Shown here: positions 5,297 through 62,091 of the stretch, piece after piece | Position numbering within the stretch: the stretch's first letter is position 1 | How the letters are laid out: each line of letters begins with the position of its first letter | NCBI GenBank assembly: GCA_020629635.1 | Contig: JAHDCX010000016.1 | Location: 34,154 to 98,153, forward strand | Source of the DNA: Acidimicrobiales bacterium | Lineage (GTDB): Bacteria; Actinomycetota; Acidimicrobiia; Acidimicrobiales; SHLQ01 | Reading direction: 5' to 3' | Length of the DNA stretch: 64,000 bases | Made by a program: the position numbers and the translations under genes | Notes under the pieces: model-generated | Seen by the model: only the letters and a program-made list of their open reading frames with translations | Told to the model about the DNA's origin: nothing | Database searches by the model: none

Positions 5297-6273
5297 ACCA
5301 TCGCCGGGTCGGCGTTGCCGCCGCTGATGACACAGATCACCGTGTCGCCCTCGATCTCGTCGGCGTGGAAGAGCGCCGCGGCCAGCGCCACCGCTCCCCC
5401 AGGTTCGGCGGCGATCTTCAACTCCGTGATGGCGACGGCCATCGCGGCCAGTGCTTCGTCATCGGAGACGGCGATGCCCGGCCCGCACAGGCGGCGAATG
5501 ATCGGGAAGGTCAGCTCTCCCGGTGACGGGGTGACGATGGCATCACAGATCGACTGCGGGGTCCCCGCAGGCACCGGCTCGCGGCGGCCCGACTCGATGG
5601 AGCGGCGAACATCGTCCCACCCCATCGGCTCGACAGGGCGCCCCCGAAGGCCGGGCGCATCGGCGGCAAGGGCGAGAGCGATACCGGACGTGAGCCCACC
5701 TCCGCCGCAGCAGACGATCACGTCGGCGGCCTCCACCCCAGCCGCCGTTGCCTGCTCGGCGATCTCCAGACCACACGTTCCCTGCCCGGCCATCACGTGC
5801 GGGTCGTCGTAGGGCCGGATCAGGTGGAGCCCACGTTCGACAGCCAACGTCTCACCGATCGCCTCTCGGCTTTCGCCGCCGGGACGGTCGTAGAGCACGA
5901 CCTCCGCACCGTAGGCGCGCGTGTTGTCGAGCTTGAGTGTCGGAGCGTCGCTGGGCATCACGATCACGGCCTCGACACCGGCGAGGGCAGCCGCCGCGGC
6001 GATTCCCTGCGCATGATTGCCAGACGAGTACGCCAGAACACCTCGGCCCGGATCGACGGCCTGAAGCGCCGTCACGGCCGACCATGCCCCACGGAACTTG
6101 AACGAGCCGGTCCGCTGCAACGACTCCGCCTTGACCAGCACCCGCCGTCCGACACGTTCGTTCAGGAGCCGATGTTCGATCAACGGCGTTCGGACTGCCT
6201 CGCCAGAGATACGAGCCTGCGCCGCTCGAATGTCGTCGACGGTGATCGCCTCGGGGGTCGTTGCGTCAGGCAT
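5266..6273 (-). CDS. PLP-dependent threonine/serine dehydratase (threonine ammonia-lyase family)
   Basis: The N-terminus ITVDDIRAAQARISGEAVRTPL is followed by the PLP-lysine motif KAESLQRTGSFKFRGA and a GGGGL glycine loop. The start is taken at MPDATT (6273); a GTG at 6306 is the alternative. Confidence 0.85.
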   Translation of the reverse strand: MPDATTPEAITVDDIRAAQARISGEAVRTPLIEHRLLNERVGRRVLVKAESLQRTGSFKFRGAWSAVTALQAVDPGRGVLAYSSGNHAQGIAAAAALAGVEAVIVMPSDAPTLKLDNTRAYGAEVVLYDRPGGESREAIGETLAVERGLHLIRPYDDPHVMAGQGTCGLEIAEQATAAGVEAADVIVCCGGGGLTSGIALALAADAPGLRGRPVEPMGWDDVRRSIESGRREPVPAGTPQSICDAIVTPSPGELTFPIIRRLCGPGIAVSDDEALAAMAVAITELKIAAEPGGAVALAAALFHADEIEGDTVICVISGGNADPAMVQRALARPVS

Positions 6274-6294
6274 GCGCCGCACGATACTGAGGGC

Positions 6295-6774
6295 ATGGTT
6301 CGCCACCCCGCTCGGCTCGTGATCCCGATCGCCATCGTGTTCGCGACAGTGCTCGTTTCGCCCGCGTCGGCTGCTCGGCTGCTCTCCAGCTCACCCGTCG
6401 ACGGCGCGCAGCTGTCCGAGCTCGAGGAGGTGTTCCTCGATTTCGATCGAATCATCGTCGACGACGACACCAACCGAATCACCGTTGTGCAGGACGACCG
6501 ACGCATCGAGCTGACGAACTTCACCTTCCCAGCCCCCGAGACGGTGCAGGCGCCCGTCACCGAGATGTTGCTATCCGGAGGTCACACCCTCGAATGGTCG
6601 ATCCTGACGGCGGATGGCGAACGCAACGAAGGCACGCTCGAGTTCACGATCAACGACCCCGGTCAGCGGCTCGCTGGCGGCATCATCGCCGCGTTCTTCA
6701 TCGCTGTAGTGACCGGCGGGATGTTGTTCGCCGTGCGCAGTGCTGATCGTCGACGGCGACCCAACCGAAACTGA
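6295..6774 (+). CDS. CopC-domain-like secreted/membrane-anchored protein
   Basis: A signal peptide (ends ...LVSPASAA) is followed by LLSSSPVDGAQLSELEEVFLDFD...GGHTLEWSILTADGERNEGTLEFTI, which has a CopC-like layout, and then a C-terminal TM helix. The canonical N-terminal His and the DGH motif are not conserved. Confidence 0.55.
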   Translation: MVRHPARLVIPIAIVFATVLVSPASAARLLSSSPVDGAQLSELEEVFLDFDRIIVDDDTNRITVVQDDRRIELTNFTFPAPETVQAPVTEMLLSGGHTLEWSILTADGERNEGTLEFTINDPGQRLAGGIIAAFFIAVVTGGMLFAVRSADRRRRPNRN

Positions 6775-54034: not shown

Positions 54035-55711
54035 GTGGACGAGCGGGCGCCATGGACACGACGACGGTTTCTTGGAGCGGGACTCGGTCTCGCGGCTGCG
54101 GCATGCAGCGGAGATGGCGAGTCGGCGGGGTCAGACCCGACGACGACCACCGGCGCACCCGATCCCACCACCACGACGACGACAACCGCCGCCGAGCGGA
54201 CACTCGTTGCGTCTCCCCCGTGGGAGGGTCCGACCCCGTTCGGCCTCGGCGTGGCGTCTGGCGACCCCGACCAGTCCTCCGTGGTGCTGTGGACACGGCT
54301 GATCGTTGACCCGCTCAGCTCGGACCGCATCGAGTTCGGCGAGGTCGACCTCGCCGTGGACGTCGCGCTCGACCCGGCATTCCAGGACCTGCTGTCGTCC
54401 GAGACCATCACCGCACGGGCGGAAGAGGGCCACAGTGTCCACCATCTCGCGTCGGGACTCGCACCCGACACATGGGTCCACTATCGATTCCGGGTCGGAA
54501 CCCACGAGTCACCGGTCGGTCGAGCTCGGACGACGCCCGCGGCCACCGGGACGCCGCTCCGGTTCGGCTTCTCGAGCTGTCAGAACTGGGAGAGCGGCGC
54601 CTACGGCGCGCATCGGCATCTCGCCGAAGCAGACCTGGACCTGATGATCTGGCTCGGCGACTACATCTACGAATACGGGCCCGGCAACCAGGGAGTCGTC
54701 GCCTCCGCCGGCCTTCGCGAGCACAACAGTCCCGAGATCACCGATCTCGAGGCCTATCGGGACCGGTACGCCCTCTATCGAAGCGACCCGCACCTTCAGG
54801 CGAGTCATGCGGCTCGGCCCTGGCTCGTCATCTGGGACGACCACGAGATCGACAACGATCACGCGGGGCGTGTCCCCGAGGACGATCAATCCGAAGCGAC
54901 GTTTCTCGCTCGCCGCCGTGCGGCCCACCAGGCGTGGTGGGAACACATGCCCGTCCGACTCCCCGCGCCGACGGGCGACGTGTTCGAGATCCACCGACGG
55001 ATCGACTGGGCCGATCTCGCATCGATCCACATGCTCGACGGTCGTCAATATCGGGCGGACCAGCCAACCGATGGCGAGCCCGTCGAACTGCCTGGCGTTG
55101 GTGATCTCGGACTGCGGCGACTCGGGCCAACCGCCCTCGACGCGTCGCACTCGATGCTCGGAGCCGAACAGGAAGCGTGGCTGCTCGACGGGGTGACCGC
55201 GAGCTCCGCGACGTGGAACGTGCTCGGCAATCAGGTCTACATGCACGGCCTCGACGCGTTTCCGGGCGACGCTCCCGCAACCAACACCGACACGTGGGAC
55301 GGCTATCACGCCAATCGTGTTCGCCTGCTCGAATCGCTCGTCGCCGCCGACCCGGGCAACCTGATCGTGCTGACCGGGGACTTCCATTCGTCGACCGCTG
55401 CCGACCTGCGCACCGACCCGTTCGACCGGTCGCTGCCCGTCGTCGCCACCGAGTTCATGGCACCGGCCATCAGCTCCCGGTTCCCGGCACAACTCGTCGA
55501 CCTCGCCCCGCTCGTCCTGGGCTTCAATCCGCAGGTCCGTCACTTCGATCCGGCCAACGGGTTCATGACCTGTGTGGTCACGCCCGAGTCGTGGACGACG
55601 ACGCTTCACACCCTCGTCGACGTCACCGATGAGCAGAGCGAGCTGCGAGAGGCGGCCGTGTTCACCGTTGCGGCCGGAACACCCGGGATCGGCACGGTCG
55701 AGGTCCGGTGA
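54035..55711 (+). CDS. phoD: PhoD-family alkaline phosphatase/phosphodiesterase (Tat-exported lipoprotein)
   Basis: The Tat motif TRRRFLGAGLGLAAAACSG is followed by FGLGVASGDPDQSSVVLWTRL, WLGDYIYE and WDDHE. Confidence 0.9.
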   Translation: MDERAPWTRRRFLGAGLGLAAAACSGDGESAGSDPTTTTGAPDPTTTTTTTAAERTLVASPPWEGPTPFGLGVASGDPDQSSVVLWTRLIVDPLSSDRIEFGEVDLAVDVALDPAFQDLLSSETITARAEEGHSVHHLASGLAPDTWVHYRFRVGTHESPVGRARTTPAATGTPLRFGFSSCQNWESGAYGAHRHLAEADLDLMIWLGDYIYEYGPGNQGVVASAGLREHNSPEITDLEAYRDRYALYRSDPHLQASHAARPWLVIWDDHEIDNDHAGRVPEDDQSEATFLARRRAAHQAWWEHMPVRLPAPTGDVFEIHRRIDWADLASIHMLDGRQYRADQPTDGEPVELPGVGDLGLRRLGPTALDASHSMLGAEQEAWLLDGVTASSATWNVLGNQVYMHGLDAFPGDAPATNTDTWDGYHANRVRLLESLVAADPGNLIVLTGDFHSSTAADLRTDPFDRSLPVVATEFMAPAISSRFPAQLVDLAPLVLGFNPQVRHFDPANGFMTCVVTPESWTTTLHTLVDVTDEQSELREAAVFTVAAGTPGIGTVEVR

Positions 55712-55754: not shown

Positions 55755-57008
55755 ATGTTGAACGAAGGGCACCGTCCGCGGGTGCTGTCGATGGTGCTCG
55801 CTGGTGGCGAAGGCAAGCGACTCATGCCGCTCACCGCCCAACGCGCCAAACCCGCCGTGCCCTTCGGAGGCCGCTATCGCCTCATCGACTTCGCGATCTC
55901 GAACCTCGTCAACTCGGGGTACCGCAAGATCGTCGTGCTCACCCAGTACAAGTCGCACAGTCTCGATGTGCACATCTCCCGAACGTGGAAGCTGTCGAGC
56001 GAGCTCGGCAGCTACGTCACGACGGTCCCGGCACAGATGCGGAGAGGACCACAGTGGTTCATGGGGTCGCTCGACGCGATCTACCAGAACTTCAACCTCA
56101 TCGACGACGAACGGCCCGAGCACATCGTCGTCTTCGGCGCCGATCACATCTACCGGATCGATGCCCGCCAGATGCTCGATGCGCATCTGGAAAGCGGTGG
56201 AGGCGCGACCGTTGCCGGCATACGTGTGCCCCGGTCCGAGTCGTCACAGTTCGGGGTGATCACCGTCGGCGCCGACTCGCCTCGAATTCTCGACTTCCAG
56301 GAGAAGCCCGTCGATGCGGTCGGCTTGCCGGACTCCCCCGACGAGGTGCTTGCGTCCATGGGCAACTACATCTTCTCGACCGAACTCCTCATGGACATGG
56401 CCAGCGAGGACGCCGGCAACGAGCAGTCGAAACACGACATCGGTGGCGACCTGATCCCGCGCCTCGTCGAGCGGGGTGACGCAAACGTCTACGACTTCAC
56501 GACCAACGTCGTGCCGGGCGAGACCGACGGCAATCGGCACTACTGGCGAGATGTCGGAACGCTCGACAGCTACTTCGAGGCGAATCTCGACCTGGTGCAG
56601 CCCGAACCGATCTTCGATCTCTACAACCCGCTGTGGCCGATCTTCTCCTACAGCCGGAACCTGCCCCCGGCGAAGTTCGTCGCCGACTGGCGATCCGGCG
56701 ACCCGGGCGTGAAGAACTCGGTCGTGTCCGCAGGGGTGATCGTCTCCGGAGCTCGAGTCAGCAACTCGGTGCTCTCGGTCGGCGCCCACATCCATCACGG
56801 GGCGGACCTGGAGAACGTCGTCATCCTCGACGATGTGGAGGTGGGGCCGAACGCCGTGCTTCGGAACTGTGTGGTCGACAAGAACGTGAAGATCGAGGAT
56901 GGCGCGCAGATCGGTGTCGATCTCGACGCCGACGCGTCGAAGTACACCGTCAGTGCCGGTGGGGTGGTCGTGATTCCGAAGGCGCAGGCGATCGCGCCTC
57001 CAGTCTGA
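55755..57008 (+). CDS. glgC: glucose-1-phosphate adenylyltransferase
   Basis: The N-terminus reads VLSMVLAGGEGKRLMPLTAQRAKPAVPFGGRYRLIDFAISNLVNSG. A C-terminal left-handed beta-helix region follows. Confidence 0.93.
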   Translation: MLNEGHRPRVLSMVLAGGEGKRLMPLTAQRAKPAVPFGGRYRLIDFAISNLVNSGYRKIVVLTQYKSHSLDVHISRTWKLSSELGSYVTTVPAQMRRGPQWFMGSLDAIYQNFNLIDDERPEHIVVFGADHIYRIDARQMLDAHLESGGGATVAGIRVPRSESSQFGVITVGADSPRILDFQEKPVDAVGLPDSPDEVLASMGNYIFSTELLMDMASEDAGNEQSKHDIGGDLIPRLVERGDANVYDFTTNVVPGETDGNRHYWRDVGTLDSYFEANLDLVQPEPIFDLYNPLWPIFSYSRNLPPAKFVADWRSGDPGVKNSVVSAGVIVSGARVSNSVLSVGAHIHHGADLENVVILDDVEVGPNAVLRNCVVDKNVKIEDGAQIGVDLDADASKYTVSAGGVVVIPKAQAIAPPV

Positions 57009-57014
57009 GTCGCG

Positions 57015-57461
57015 TCAGGGCTCGACGATCTCGTCCACCTGGACGATCACGTCGCCGGCGTCGTCTCGGACCACTCTCGAGCGAACGACGGTCGATCCGT
57101 CCGTTACCTCGAGGAGCAGCACGTCGTCGACGACCGTCGCCTCCCCGCTCCATCCCTCGTGAAGGTCTATGGCGACGACGGCCAGCTCCGGGCCGTCCGA
57201 GACAACGTCGACGAACCCAAGGCCCATGACGGCAACCCGATGCTCAACGAGACCGTCGGGCCACGTCGTTGTCGTCGTCGACGACGGCTCGCTCGTGCGT
57301 GCGACAGCCAACACGGTGCTCGTGGTCGAGGCGGTCGCCCCCGCCTGCGGTGTCTCCGAGGCTCCGGGCAACGGACTCGTCGCGACGATGACCGTCGCTG
57401 CGAAGACCGGCACGGCAGCGAGTGCAGCCACTCGATTGCGCCGCAGCCGTCGAACGTCCAT
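57015..57461 (-). CDS. secreted protein of unknown function
   Basis: The signal reads MDVRRLRRNRVAALAAVPVFAATVIVATSP. A Thr/Ser-rich linker and a beta-rich acidic domain follow. The start could also be at 57518. Confidence 0.5.
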   Translation of the reverse strand: MDVRRLRRNRVAALAAVPVFAATVIVATSPLPGASETPQAGATASTTSTVLAVARTSEPSSTTTTTWPDGLVEHRVAVMGLGFVDVVSDGPELAVVAIDLHEGWSGEATVVDDVLLLEVTDGSTVVRSRVVRDDAGDVIVQVDEIVEP

Positions 57462-57585
57462 GAAACCCAGATCGGCGGACGTGTGCACCGTCATGAGCGC
57501 TCGGGACCAACATCCCAACCTGGGTCTCCGGCATCATTGGTGACAGCTCGGGAACCACGACACCCGACGCGTCGTACCAAACTCT

Positions 57586-57876
57586 ATGCACGCCAATGAG
57601 ACCACCGCCCGAAACCACCGCCGACCCAACCGCCGCACACTCGGGGTGCTCGCCGCAACCGCTCTCGCCGCCACGACGGTGGGAGCGATGAGTCTTGCGG
57701 CCGCTTCCGAAGGCGAACCCAAGCCCAACAGCCCGATCGTCGAGGAGTCATCCGAGCGCCCCGTCAACGAGATCGTGCTCGAGGTCGTGGAGCTCGCCGT
57801 CGACGGTGCGCCATTCGACCTACCGATCCTGCACGAAGACATGGGCGAAGACTGCCCGGCGTGCGGCATGGGCTGA
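57586..57876 (+). CDS. candidate RiPP precursor peptide: signal-peptide-bearing 96-aa protein ending CPACGMG
   Basis: The product is MHANETTARNHRRPNRRTLGVLAATALAATTVGAMSLAAAS|EGEPKPNSPIVEESSERPVNEIVLEVVELAVDGAPFDLPILHEDMGEDCPACGMG. Its only two Cys lie in the last 7 residues. The stop is 1 nt before the ATG of the DUF692 gene. Confidence 0.6.
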   Translation: MHANETTARNHRRPNRRTLGVLAATALAATTVGAMSLAAASEGEPKPNSPIVEESSERPVNEIVLEVVELAVDGAPFDLPILHEDMGEDCPACGMG

Positions 57877-57877
57877 C

Positions 57878-58726
57878 ATGGTCCAGTTCGGCGTGTCCGT
57901 CATGCCCGAACCTGCTTTTGCGGCAGCCTCCCTTGCGCTCTTCGAGGAAGGCCTGATCGAGGTGATCGAGTGGAGCTTCGACCTTGGTTGGGGCGCTGCG
58001 GGAGTGCCCACCTTCGTGGACGCATTGCTTGCGGACTACGAATCGACGGGGGATCTCGTTGGTCACGGCGTGTCGTTCTCCGCGCTCAGCGGCGCCTGGA
58101 CCCCACACCACGAATGGTGGCTCGAGCGCCTCCGCCGCGAGGTCGAGGAACGTTCGTATCGCCACATCTCCGAGCACTTCGGGTTCATCGGCGCTGGTCG
58201 GTTCAGCTTCGCCGCACCACTCCCCGTGCCCTTTCACCGCGACGTCGTCGAACTGGGACGAGAGCGACTGGGGCGACTCGCCGAGGCGGCTGGTCGCCCG
58301 ATCGGGCTGGAGAACCTGGCGACGTCGTTCGGCGTCGACGACGGACGCAACCAGGGTGCATTCCTCGAGGCTCTCCTACAGCCAGTGGACGGATTCGTGG
58401 TGCTCGATCTCCACAACCTGTGGTGTCAATCCCTCAATCTCGATCTCGATGCGATGGCGCTCGTCGACTCGTACCCGCTGGATCGGGTCCGGGAGATCCA
58501 CGTGAGCGGTGGGTCCTGGCATCCGGGTGGCCGGCGGCTGCGACGCGACACCCACGACAACCTCGTGCCCGACGAAGTCCTCGAACTCCTCCAAGCGGTG
58601 ATCCGCCGCTGCCCCGACCTCGAGGTCGTGATCCACGAGCGACTCGGGACGAGCTTGAGCGACGTCACGACGCACGACGCCTATCGTGGCGACGTGAGAC
58701 GTGTCGCCGATGTGGTGCAGGGATGA
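57878..58726 (+). CDS. DUF692 / MNIO-family (MbnB-like multinuclear non-heme iron oxidative) enzyme
   Basis: The ordered motifs are HGVSFSALSG, HISEHFGF, IGLENLA, VVLDLHNLWC, VREIHVSGG, RRDTHDNLVPDEV and VVIHERL. These correspond to the DUF692 TIM-barrel metal-ligand pattern. Confidence 0.8.
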   Translation: MVQFGVSVMPEPAFAAASLALFEEGLIEVIEWSFDLGWGAAGVPTFVDALLADYESTGDLVGHGVSFSALSGAWTPHHEWWLERLRREVEERSYRHISEHFGFIGAGRFSFAAPLPVPFHRDVVELGRERLGRLAEAAGRPIGLENLATSFGVDDGRNQGAFLEALLQPVDGFVVLDLHNLWCQSLNLDLDAMALVDSYPLDRVREIHVSGGSWHPGGRRLRRDTHDNLVPDEVLELLQAVIRRCPDLEVVIHERLGTSLSDVTTHDAYRGDVRRVADVVQG

Positions 58727-58911
58727 AGAACGAGTCCCTCGACCGCTATCAATCCACACTGCTCGACATCCTCTACACCACCGCGCAGCCCACAGCCGAG
58801 CAGATCCGTGAGGCTGCCGGGCCCTTCGCGGAGGACCTCGGCGAACTCGACGCCGACCTGCTCGCGGTCGCTGCGGAGCTCACTCGGACCTGGGGGCGTC
58901 TCACCAGTTGA
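58723..58911 (+). CDS. 62-aa acidic helical protein, possible minimal MNIO partner (DUF2063/MbnC-role) protein
   Basis: It is ATGA-coupled to the MNIO gene and TTGA-coupled to the next gene. The product is MKNESLDRYQSTLLDILYTTAQPTAEQIREAAGPFAEDLGELDADLLAVAAELTRTWGRLTS. The partner role is inferred from position only. Confidence 0.45.
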   Translation: MKNESLDRYQSTLLDILYTTAQPTAEQIREAAGPFAEDLGELDADLLAVAAELTRTWGRLTS

Positions 58912-59615
58912 GTGCTTCGCCGATCCTCTTGGTGATGGCGATGCACGCCGAATCCGACCCGATTCGCTCCCGTCTCGACCTGCAGCCAGCCGGTTCGCCC
59001 GAGCTGTGGCCGAGCATCGAGTGGTTCGCCTCTGACGACGAGTCGATCGTGCTCGCCCGCAACGGGCGCGACCCCGGTCACGGCGTCGATGCCATCGGAA
59101 CCGGACCGGCCACGATCACCACGCTTCTCTCGGTCCAACGCTGGCAGCCGCGCTGGATCGTGAGTGCGGGGACGGCAGGTGGCTTCAATGCACGTGGCGG
59201 ACACGTGGGACAAGTCATCGTGGCCGACGGGCCCGTCATCCATCACGATCGGCGCATCCCGCTCCCGGGCTTCGACCAGCTCGCACGCGGCGGACACCCG
59301 TCGGCAGATCTTCGGGACGTCGCGACCCGCCTCGGCTTCGTCAGCGGTCCGTGTTCGACGGGCGACAGCTTGGATGCGCCACCGGCCGACATCGAGGCGA
59401 TGGCCGCCCATGGCACGCTGGCAAAGGACATGGAGGCCGCAGCGGTCGCCGGGGTCGCCGACCGCTTGGGTGTTCGGTTCACCGCGTGCAAGGTCATCAC
59501 CGACATCGTCGACGGCGAGATCGCAACGGCGGAGGAGTTCCGGGCGAACCTGGCGACTGCCTCGGCAGTCCTCGCCGATGCCGTCCCGGCCTTATTGGCC
59601 GACTTACCCGCCTGA
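58908..59615 (+). CDS. MTA/SAH nucleosidase-like protein (PNP_UDP_1 family)
   Basis: Motifs are ILLVMAMHAES, IVSAGTAGGF, STGDSL, KDMEAAAVA and KVITDIV, which parallel E. coli MtnN. The start is TTG. Confidence 0.7.
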   Translation: MSASPILLVMAMHAESDPIRSRLDLQPAGSPELWPSIEWFASDDESIVLARNGRDPGHGVDAIGTGPATITTLLSVQRWQPRWIVSAGTAGGFNARGGHVGQVIVADGPVIHHDRRIPLPGFDQLARGGHPSADLRDVATRLGFVSGPCSTGDSLDAPPADIEAMAAHGTLAKDMEAAAVAGVADRLGVRFTACKVITDIVDGEIATAEEFRANLATASAVLADAVPALLADLPA

Positions 59616-59954
59616 TCGCTCCGGGATCACCCGAACCCCGAACTCGTTGCCATCCGGGTCGATCAATCGAACCAATGGGCCAGCGTCGGTCTCGTCGGGC
59701 CGGATCGCACCGCGGTCGACCAGCCTCGCAACATCGTCGGCGGCGCCGCTGAGCATCAGCTGCAACCGTTGATGCGAGCTGAGGTGGTCGACCATCTCGA
59801 AGATGATGCCTGGACCCGTGGCGATCTTCGGGCAGATCCGGAATTCGGCCGGCCGATCGTCGACCACCGTCCACCCCAGAGCTTCTGCCCACCAGCGTCC
59901 GAGTGCGACAGGATCGACGGCATCGATGACGAGGTCCTCCCACGAGAGGCTCAT
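59604..59954 (-). CDS. VOC/glyoxalase-bleomycin-resistance family protein
   Basis: The pattern is LVIDAVDPVALGRWWAEALGW...LIDPDGNEFGV. Confidence 0.7.
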   Translation of the reverse strand: MSLSWEDLVIDAVDPVALGRWWAEALGWTVVDDRPAEFRICPKIATGPGIIFEMVDHLSSHQRLQLMLSGAADDVARLVDRGAIRPDETDAGPLVRLIDPDGNEFGVRVIPERSGG

Positions 59955-60364
59955 CGGGCGCCAGCCTGGCGAACGGAATGCGCAATGTAGGCCTGCGCCG
60001 CGGCGAGCGGGCCGTACAGCACGACCAAGGCGGCTGCGCCGGTCAGGATCGACAGCACCGCCATTGACGCATCGACCAGCGCGTGGGCAGCGGCGATGAT
60101 CATGAGGCGGTCGAGCCGCTCCTGCATCGCCCAGATCACCTGACCCGCGATCAGCAGGAGTCCGGCGACGAAGACGACCGCCAGGAGGGCCAAACCGACG
60201 CCTCCCCGATCACCACCCGCGCCTGCGTCGCCGTCGACGAAGAGCGAACCGAGGGTCACCGTCGCGACGCCGACCAGCCAGCCAAAGGCCTTCAGCCCCG
60301 AGACCATCCAGATGAGCGTCGCGGTCTTCGGCGGTATGTCCGACGACGCGACGGGCGATCCCAT
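59951..60364 (-). CDS. integral membrane protein, unknown function
   Basis: There are four hydrophobic segments. Its stop overlaps the start of the downstream (minus-strand) VOC gene by 4 nt. Confidence 0.5.
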   Translation of the reverse strand: MGSPVASSDIPPKTATLIWMVSGLKAFGWLVGVATVTLGSLFVDGDAGAGGDRGGVGLALLAVVFVAGLLLIAGQVIWAMQERLDRLMIIAAAHALVDASMAVLSILTGAAALVVLYGPLAAAQAYIAHSVRQAGAR

Positions 60365-62006: not shown

Positions 62007-62091
62007 ATGGGGTCAAGTCTGACATAGCAAGAGGTTGCCGAGGTTCGGGGCACCTGGCCAGAACCTCTTGCTATGTCAGACTTGACCCCAT
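62007..62091. repeat. 30-bp perfect inverted repeat with 25-nt spacer filling the gap between convergent genes
   Basis: The left arm is ATGGGGTCAAGTCTGACATAGCAAGAGGTT (62007-62036). The right arm is AACCTCTTGCTATGTCAGACTTGACCCCAT (62062-62091). The arms are noticeably AT-richer than the genome. Confidence 0.9.

Follow-up and report, generated by a model that had tools for sequence, protein, structure and literature searches.

Precursor peptides of the ChrA/chryseobasin type end with a conserved CPACGMG motif (PMC10214503, 2023). The MNIO (DUF692) enzyme ChrH turns this sequence into a structure containing a macrocycle, an imidazolidinedione, thioaminals and an S-methyl group, the last of which is derived from S-adenosylmethionine (SAM) (PMC10214503). 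A broader form of the motif, CPxCGxG, is conserved across the ChrH/DybH/MelH subfamily of MNIO enzymes and defines it (PMC13056109, PNAS 2026). Here, we describe a locus encoding a CPACGMG peptide in a 64,000 nucleotide stretch of DNA from an Acidimicrobiales bacterium (Actinomycetota; assembly GCA_020629635.1, contig JAHDCX010000016.1, positions 34,154 to 98,153 of the forward strand). This whole stretch is referred to below as the window. The locus consists of four adjoining open reading frames, ORF1 to ORF4. A preliminary description, made from the DNA sequence, had taken these for a candidate novel pathway producing a RiPP (a peptide made on the ribosome and modified after translation) or metallophore. 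We find that the Acidimicrobiales locus is, very probably, a three-gene cassette of the published ChrH/DybH/MelH peptide-macrocyclising family, with ORF4 as a housekeeping neighbour.

All members of the subfamily have an extra C-terminal helical bundle of ~7.8 kDa. In Cyanobacteria the bundle is a separate protein, MelHc; MelH needs it for activity, and the two co-purify (PMC13056109). Many of the precursors carry signal peptides. These are either of the lipoprotein type (the “DAG-RiPPs”) or, for the 34-kDa MelA1, a secretion signal (PMC13056109). Most characterised members yield an unmethylated −4 Da product, and ChrI is dispensable (PMC13056109). The phyla named are Bacteroidota, Cyanobacteriota, Myxococcota and Planctomycetota, all of which are Gram-negative (PMC13056109). 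The string “Actino” is absent from the text of that paper, its supplementary protein list aside, and a full-text literature search for MNIO together with Acidimicrobiia found no paper.

The features of the Acidimicrobiales locus are as follows.

57586-57876, plus strand: ORF1, 96 aa, ChrA-like precursor peptide.
57878-58726, plus strand: ORF2, 282 aa, MNIO catalytic subunit of the ChrH/DybH/MelH subfamily, split form without the C-terminal domain.
58723-58911, plus strand: ORF3, 62 aa, separately encoded C-terminal helical-bundle subunit, assigned by alignment as the MelHc equivalent.
58908-59615, plus strand: ORF4, 235 aa from a TTG start, plant-type 5′-methylthioadenosine (MTA) nucleosidase, a backbone gene outside the cassette.
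57002-58919, no strand assigned: cassette-bearing segment of 1.9 kb, containing a 167-aa ORFan and ORF1 to ORF3; 24 bp are found in its place in the relative L092.
57015-57518, minus strand: 167-aa ORFan within the 1.9-kb insert, divergent from ORF1.

The junctions on which the preliminary description relied are all present. The ORF1 stop codon and the ORF2 ATG are spaced by 1 nt, ORF2 and ORF3 share an ATGA overlap, and ORF3 and ORF4 share a TTGA overlap. The GC content at third codon positions is between 0.78 and 0.81 for the four ORFs, which is coding-type. Tight coupling of ORF1, ORF2 and ORF3 is borne out, and the trio is conserved in relatives. A pathway of four genes is not; ORF4 proves to be a conserved backbone gene that adjoins the cassette.

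The identification of ORF2 as an MNIO, and of the operon as one of the DUF692 RiPP type, was correct. ORF2 matched PF05114 with an E value of 1e-32 and the ligand motifs are intact in the alignment. Among the NCBIfam models for MNIO enzymes, ORF2 was closer to MNIO_ChrH than to every other model scored. Thus, the score was 296 bits for MNIO_ChrH (model positions 4-283 of 363; the cutoff of this model is considered below) compared with 97 bits for BufB, 79 for HvfB, 47 for ApyH and 21 for MbnB. Family alignments identify the invariant residues of the ligand motifs as H63, E99/H100, E145, D177/H179/N180, H208, D224/H226/D227 and E254. The LEN, LDLHN, HxxGG and DxHD motifs align with those of TglH, HS_1138 and MbnB. 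In an AlphaFold2 (AF2) model of ORF2 joined to ORF3, ORF2 is a TIM barrel; the best fold matches are TglH and MbnB (target-normalised TM-scores of 0.72-0.78), with HS_1138 also among them. No solved structure of a ChrH-family member was detectable by sequence. ORF2 is 42-52% identical to the MNIO enzymes of Chryseobacterium, Chitinophaga, Hymenobacter and Melainabacteria. The published identity between ChrH and DybH is 40% (PMC13056109).

ORF3 had been put forward as a candidate partner protein, unusually short, in place of MbnC, TglI or DUF2063. Alignments do not bear this out. Close relatives of ORF2 fall into two length classes, of ~283 aa and ~365 aa. When ORF2 and ORF3 are concatenated they align end-to-end with the long forms, and ORF3 falls on the C-terminal domain of the latter. 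ORF3 and the fused C-terminal domains have in common the invariant YQ..LL and VAAELTRTWG motifs, and the invariant positions (in fusion numbering) are Q292, L296, V331, L335, W339 and G340. A BLASTP comparison of ORF3 with residues 309-362 of protein P0018 gave an E value of 2e-7. With tblastn, ORF3 matched sequences directly downstream of, or within, the MNIO gene at 20 loci from several phyla. We built a hidden Markov model (HMM) of this small subunit, hereafter Hc, from 15 sequences. Using one genome per species, the Hc HMM detected a separate ORF ~40 nt or less downstream of 39 of the 41 short MNIO genes, and it also matched inside 15 long ones. The match to ORF3 (E 1.6e-20) must be read with the knowledge that ORF3 is itself among the 15 sequences used for building. 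Bacteroidota C-terminal domains are missed by the Hc HMM; the Chryseobacterium C-terminus gave an E value of 0.012 only. ORF3 alone has no match in Pfam or NCBIfam, and an artificial ORF2-ORF3 fusion lengthens the match to the ChrH model only as far as position 292. The C-terminus of this model is too specific to Chryseobacterium. Hence, the homology of ORF3 is established via the fused Acidimicrobiales relatives. On these alignments, ORF3 is the C-terminal helical bundle specific to the family, here with a gene of its own, and the equivalent of MelHc.

The cassette is conserved in relatives. Our survey covered 80 species-representative loci (L008-L087), with one genome for each species. At 58 of these, an ORF on the same strand and ending with C[PA]xCGxx-stop lies no more than 800 nt upstream of the MNIO gene, and for 50 of the 58 at most 110 nt lie between the motif and the start of the MNIO gene. 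In the rest of the 80 loci, read in all six frames, the pattern occurs once. Hence, the motif is not a chance feature, and a small upstream ORF ending with CPxCG, proposed as a test in the preliminary description, is indeed conserved beside homologues of ORF2. The six nearest genomes are Acidimicrobiales metagenome-assembled genomes (57-69% identity). In all of the Acidimicrobiales relatives, precursors ending with CPACG[ML]G-stop are directly upstream of the MNIO gene. In a neighbour-joining tree, without bootstrap, the six genomes and the window form one clade that divides in two: one subclade, to which the window belongs, has split enzymes and the other has fused ones. The genes flanking the cassette differ at every locus examined. 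Hence, the conserved unit is precursor, MNIO and Hc. Across the 80 species, a split MNIO with a separate Hc ORF is the majority form outside Bacteroidota. The split form was found in Verrucomicrobiota, Planctomycetota, Myxococcota, Omnitrophota, Chlamydiales, Bdellovibrionales, Vicinamibacteria, Acidobacteriota and Acidimicrobiales.

Two further observations were made during the survey. Several loci have two tandem precursors, and some of the Planctomycetota precursors are ~260 aa in length with clear RR signals (L052 and L066).

The features claimed for ORF1 were all found in its sequence. The N-terminal region contains HRRPNRRTLG, and with it two RR pairs, and a hydrophobic stretch spans residues 18-40. 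A signal peptide is predicted for residues 1-40 (57586-57705) with an AAA|S site at residues 38-41, where signal peptidase I is predicted to cleave. The predicted mature peptide is acidic (14 D+E compared with 2 K+R). The core, CPACGMG, corresponds to residues 90-96 (57853-57873) and is followed by the stop codon; the C-terminal end reads ...HEDMGEDCPACGMG. ORF1 has two Cys residues only, both of them inside this terminal motif, and the surroundings of the core are rich in His, Met, Asp and Cys. The tail matched the NCBIfam model ChrA_rel_RiPP, for chryseobasin-related MNIO class RiPP peptides, weakly (E 0.051). These features are consistent with the earlier proposal of a precursor that carries a signal peptide and has its C-terminal Cys pair as the likely target of modification. 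The accompanying suggestion that the core looks different was mistaken. CPACGMG is the exact ChrA/chryseobasin motif and belongs to the CPxCGxG type that defines the ChrH/DybH/MelH subfamily. Nor is a precursor with a signal peptide distinctive, having already been described for the same subfamily.

No lipobox Cys is present in ORF1 or in the signal region of any of the seven Acidimicrobiales precursors; in Bacteroidota and Planctomycetota, by contrast, many of the precursors have one. Hence, ORF1 is not a lipidated DAG-RiPP. The export route suggested by the sequence could be either general secretory (Sec) or twin-arginine translocation (Tat). Taking the second possibility further, the Acidimicrobiales clade might represent a distinct chryseobasin variant, exported by Tat after modification in the cytoplasm and giving a soluble acidic product set free by a monoderm-lineage actinobacterium, with the coupling to the MTA nucleosidase in the window genome perhaps supporting a SAM-dependent S-methylation. 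If true, this would be the first family member from Actinomycetota and possibly the first Tat-dependent RiPP. An RR pair does precede an Ala/Gly/Thr-rich h-region in 6 of the 7 Acidimicrobiales precursors compared with 4 of 66 from other phyla (Fisher p 8e-6), a comparison confounded by the Arg richness of high-GC genomes. Tat-signal HMMs from Pfam and TIGR did not match ORF1, and gave only sub-threshold Tat-family matches for the fused-subclade precursors from L007 and L010. The PhoD control from the window was matched at E 0.03-0.04. We regard the distinct variant, taken as a whole, as unlikely. The control itself is a PhoD-family phosphatase encoded at 54035-55711 on the plus strand, in which a twin-arginine signal is followed by a lipobox-like AAAC (WTRRRFLGAGLGLAAAACSG).

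ORF4 matched PF01048 (PNP_UDP_1) with an E value of 1.9e-21 and the Arabidopsis MTA nucleosidase (MTAN) AtMTAN1 (PDB 2h8g) with an E value of 2.9e-39. The latter alignment covers residues 4-224 and includes the N-terminal strand. ORF4 scored below the NCBIfam cutoffs for bacterial MTAN (40 compared with 74 bits). In Acidimicrobiaceae and Planctomycetota, many of its homologues bear the annotation 5′-methylthioadenosine nucleosidase. Nucleosidases with dual activity on MTA and S-adenosylhomocysteine (SAH) match ORF4 far more weakly than AtMTAN1 does. AtMTAN1 acts poorly on SAH. The public gene call places the start of ORF4 at ATG 58935, giving 226 aa, which would remove the first beta-strand. 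Because the AtMTAN1 alignment begins at residue 4 (SPILLVMAMHAES), and relatives retain the first strand, TTG 58908 is the better start. The TTGA overlap of ORF3 and ORF4 is thus probably real.

The remark in the preliminary description that an MTA nucleosidase is atypical of MNIO clusters was well founded. At the 80 species loci and at three closer metagenomic loci, the 5 kb to each side of the MNIO gene contained no homologue of ORF4. Conversely, an orthologue that is 77% identical is present in L092 (GCA_020629375.1), where the gene order is PhoD-GlgC-MTAN-Glyoxalase-135aa-DUF533-GpsA and there is no MNIO. This is the gene order of the window minus the cassette. The second relative, L093, also has the order MTAN-DUF533-GpsA. 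In blastn comparisons, positions 55757-57001 of the window correspond to 4717-5961 of L092, and positions 58920-59587 to 5986-6653. Thus, the two genomes are collinear through GlgC (up to 57001) and again in MTAN (58920 onwards), and 57002-58919 of the window stands in place of 24 bp. No terminal direct or inverted repeats were found flanking the 1.9-kb insert, and its GC content (0.661, compared with 0.649 and 0.676 for the flanks) is not anomalous. Homology between ORF4 and the L092 MTAN begins at codon 5 (58920), while 58908-58919 lies in the insert. Hence, the cassette supplies the TTG start and the first four codons of ORF4. ORF4 belongs to the chromosomal backbone as a housekeeping gene and lies outside the cassette. 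As a conserved cargo of the pathway it was considered and ruled out, by its absence from the 80 loci and by the cassette-free synteny in L092 and L093.

A different role for ORF4 can be envisaged, in which a ChrH-type cassette has recruited the adjoining MTAN, and removal of MTA or SAH would favour SAM-dependent S-methylation (+10 Da) in this lineage. The modification of ChrA includes a SAM-derived S-methyl group (PMC10214503), the origin of the methylation is stated to be unresolved (PMC13056109), and translation of ORF4, which starts in overlap with the ORF3 stop and takes four codons from the insert, is probably coupled to the cassette. We nonetheless consider recruitment improbable. The adjacency is unique to the window genome among the 80 species and three metagenomic loci, and MTAN occupies the same backbone slot, free of the cassette, in L092 and L093. 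Moreover, the best structural homologue is AtMTAN1, which carries the annotation MTA nucleosidase, with the dual MTA/SAH nucleosidases far behind, and the products of most characterised family members are unmethylated (PMC13056109).

Returning to the three-gene cassette, published homologues suggest how it may work. ORF1 would act as the precursor. In the cytoplasm ORF2, a putative tri-iron MNIO, would heterodimerise with the helical subunit ORF3, in the manner of MelH and MelHc, and the complex would take four electrons from the C-terminal CPACGMG in an oxidation. Rearrangement of the second Cys would give a thioaminal-linked macrocycle with the first Cys and an imidazolidinedione (hydantoin) ring. 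The iron content of ChrH as isolated was 1.9 per monomer. We infer formation of the macrocycle and hydantoin by ORF2 and ORF3 from the chemistry of their relatives. The expected mass shift would be −4 Da; S-methylation, as described for ChrA, would make it +10 Da. The signal peptide would direct export after modification, as the published homologues lead us to propose, and signal peptidase I would cut after AAA40. The peptide so released would be soluble, acidic, ~56 aa in length and not lipidated, and would bear the modified C-terminus. For its part, the cassette would have landed directly upstream of MTAN, for which it now supplies the first four codons.

Several points weigh against the assignment to the ChrH/DybH/MelH family or against parts of the scheme built upon it. 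First, the 296 bits obtained with ORF2 fall below the curated cutoff of 600 for the MNIO_ChrH equivalog (NF050165). Two Chryseobacterium proteins, with 671 and 706 bits, pass this threshold. Proteins from Hymenobacter (376), Chitinophaga (400), Melainabacteria (298 and 316) and Hydrococcus (357) fail, and Hymenobacter, Chitinophaga and Melainabacteria have experimentally active family members (PMC13056109). Since only Chryseobacterium proteins exceed 600 bits, the cutoff marks a genus-level orthologue rather than the subfamily. Since taxa with active members are also under the cutoff, ORF2 ranks with MelH within the subfamily and is not a ChrH equivalog. Second, the mass and structure of the product are predictions carried over from homologues of 42-52% identity, and S-methylation may or may not occur, even in characterised members. 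Third, the need for ORF3 is drawn from one published case, that of MelH and MelHc. Fourth, the AF2 model of ORF2 joined to ORF3 is confident (pLDDT 88, pTM 0.80; ORF3 folds as three helices with pLDDT 83-90) but describes an artificial fusion without the natural linker, and its packing of the helical bundle is indicative only. Fifth, parsimony over three genomes is the basis for reading the indel as an insertion here and not as a deletion in L092. Finally, ORF4 may still be co-expressed with the cassette through the tight TTGA overlap.

The proposal of a novel four-gene RiPP or metallophore pathway, with an unprecedented 62-aa partner, an MTA/SAH nucleosidase-like enzyme and a new Cys-derived metal-binding motif, is harder to sustain. 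It draws on the translational coupling of all four ORFs and on the abundance of potential ligands (His, Met, Asp and Cys) around the core. In addition, the physiological function of the ChrH/DybH/MelH family is not established (PMC13056109). Against this, published work already covers the core motif, the subfamily of the enzyme and a small subunit encoded apart from it (PMC10214503, PMC13056109), which takes away most of the novelty that the preliminary description had itself made conditional on a database search. Neither the 80 species loci nor the metagenomic loci nearest to the window have ORF4, and it occupies the identical backbone position in a cassette-free relative. We therefore judge a novel pathway of this kind to be very improbable. 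Least credible of all is a copper-chelating RiPP like the bufferins or oxazolins, in which Cys would become a thiooxazole or oxazolone-thioamide on a Sec-exported peptide: ORF1 does have a signal peptide, as bufferins do, and ORF2 has secondary matches to the BufB and HvfB models, but these reach 97 bits (cutoff 310) and 79 bits (cutoff 360) compared with 296 for ChrH, no DUF2063 or DUF2282 match was found for ORF1 (which has no Pfam family match at all, and no EGKCG motif), ORF3 or the neighbours, and the core is the ChrA motif, on which related enzymes make a macrocycle and hydantoin (PMC13056109).

Other features surround the cassette. The closest relatives that carry the cassette, L003 and L088, encode small multi-pass membrane proteins on the flanks of the trio:

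L003 5170-5640, plus strand: 156 aa multi-pass membrane protein, no Pfam match.
L003 7123-7539, minus strand: 138 aa, weak DUF4345 match.
L088 4192-4626, minus strand: 144 aa, weak DUF4345 match.

No counterpart of these proteins adjoins the cassette in the window. The ORFan at 57015-57518 (minus strand) encodes an RR motif and a transmembrane anchor, a Thr/Ser-rich linker and a beta-rich C-terminus, and its GC content by codon position (0.70/0.52/0.80) is coding-type. Among 5.8 billion proteins, the only match was to its own sequence, and it matched no Pfam or NCBIfam model. It was rejected as a gene of the cluster; tblastn gave no match in related loci. Promoter and terminator scans of 56900-60000 found nothing.

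Two observations concern more distant parts of the window. A perfect 28-bp inverted repeat (GGGGTCAAGTCTGACATAGCAAGAGGTT) with a 25-nt loop is present at 62009-62089, between the convergent GpsA and WS/DGAT genes, and folds as a hairpin of −67 kcal/mol (z = −10). The element occurs at two sites in L092, with 96% identity, where the flanking genes are ~79% identical. It has no Rfam match, and resembles a palindromic repeat element specific to the lineage or else a bidirectional terminator. A selenocysteine tRNA gene is present at 524-615 on the minus strand (Rfam RF01852, 65 bits). Hence, selenoprotein synthesis is implied in this Acidimicrobiales genome.

The locus extends the ChrH/DybH/MelH RiPPs, described so far from Gram-negative phyla, into the Acidimicrobiales (Actinomycetota). 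What is new is modest, namely the Acidimicrobiales clade itself, absent from the literature covered, RR-containing signal peptides without a lipobox, and the presence of split and fused enzymes in a single clade. The arrangement of split MNIO and Hc, reported for Cyanobacteria, proves to be common outside Bacteroidota. Our understanding of the family chemistry is unchanged by the locus. Being short, soluble and non-lipidated, the predicted precursor would be a convenient substrate with which to study what the CPxCGxG macrocycle does and what Hc contributes. There is also a lesson for annotation. A tight overlap of start and stop codons is no proof of pathway membership, as illustrated by an MTAN whose start codon comes from an inserted cassette.

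Comparison with known systems places the locus among its relatives. ORF4 resembles AtMTAN1 in aligning over its full length, and differs in that its start codon is derived from the inserted cassette. With ChrA, ChrH and ChrI of Chryseobacterium, the locus shares an identical terminal CPACGMG, the MNIO subfamily and a precursor of similar size with two Cys residues. Conversely, ChrH is a fused enzyme of ~365 aa, ORF2 being 43-44% identical to the Chryseobacterium enzymes, and the chr operon also encodes ChrI (a DUF1772 membrane protein), the epimerase ChrE and the M42 peptidase ChrP. When ChrI, ChrE and ChrP from L042 (Chryseobacterium) were compared by tblastn with the whole 64-kb window, the best E value was 0.57 and there was no homologue; the neighbouring small membrane protein had no Pfam match. 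The DybA/DybH DAG-RiPPs of Bacteroidota are similar in having a minimal set of precursor and MNIO, no classical partner, a CPxCGxG core and a signal peptide. They differ in that DybA-type precursors have a lipobox Cys and are lipidated, while ORF1 and all of the Acidimicrobiales precursors lack a lipobox, and in that DybH is fused whereas ORF2 and ORF3 are split.

MelA1, MelH and MelHc of Candidatus Melainabacteria share more of the layout. In both cases an MNIO core of ~280 aa is followed by a small helical subunit with a gene of its own, the precursor carries a secretion signal at its N-terminus and CPACGMG at its C-terminus, and there is no ChrI-like partner. The split enzymes of Melainabacteria score 298-316 bits with the ChrH model, compared with 296 for ORF2. 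The differences lie in the host, which is Cyanobacteriota/Melainabacteria rather than a monoderm-lineage actinobacterium (MNIO identity 45-48%), and in the precursor. Whereas MelA1 is a 34-kDa tetratricopeptide repeat protein, ORF1 is a peptide of 96 aa, and its signal peptide, unlike that of MelA1, contains RR.

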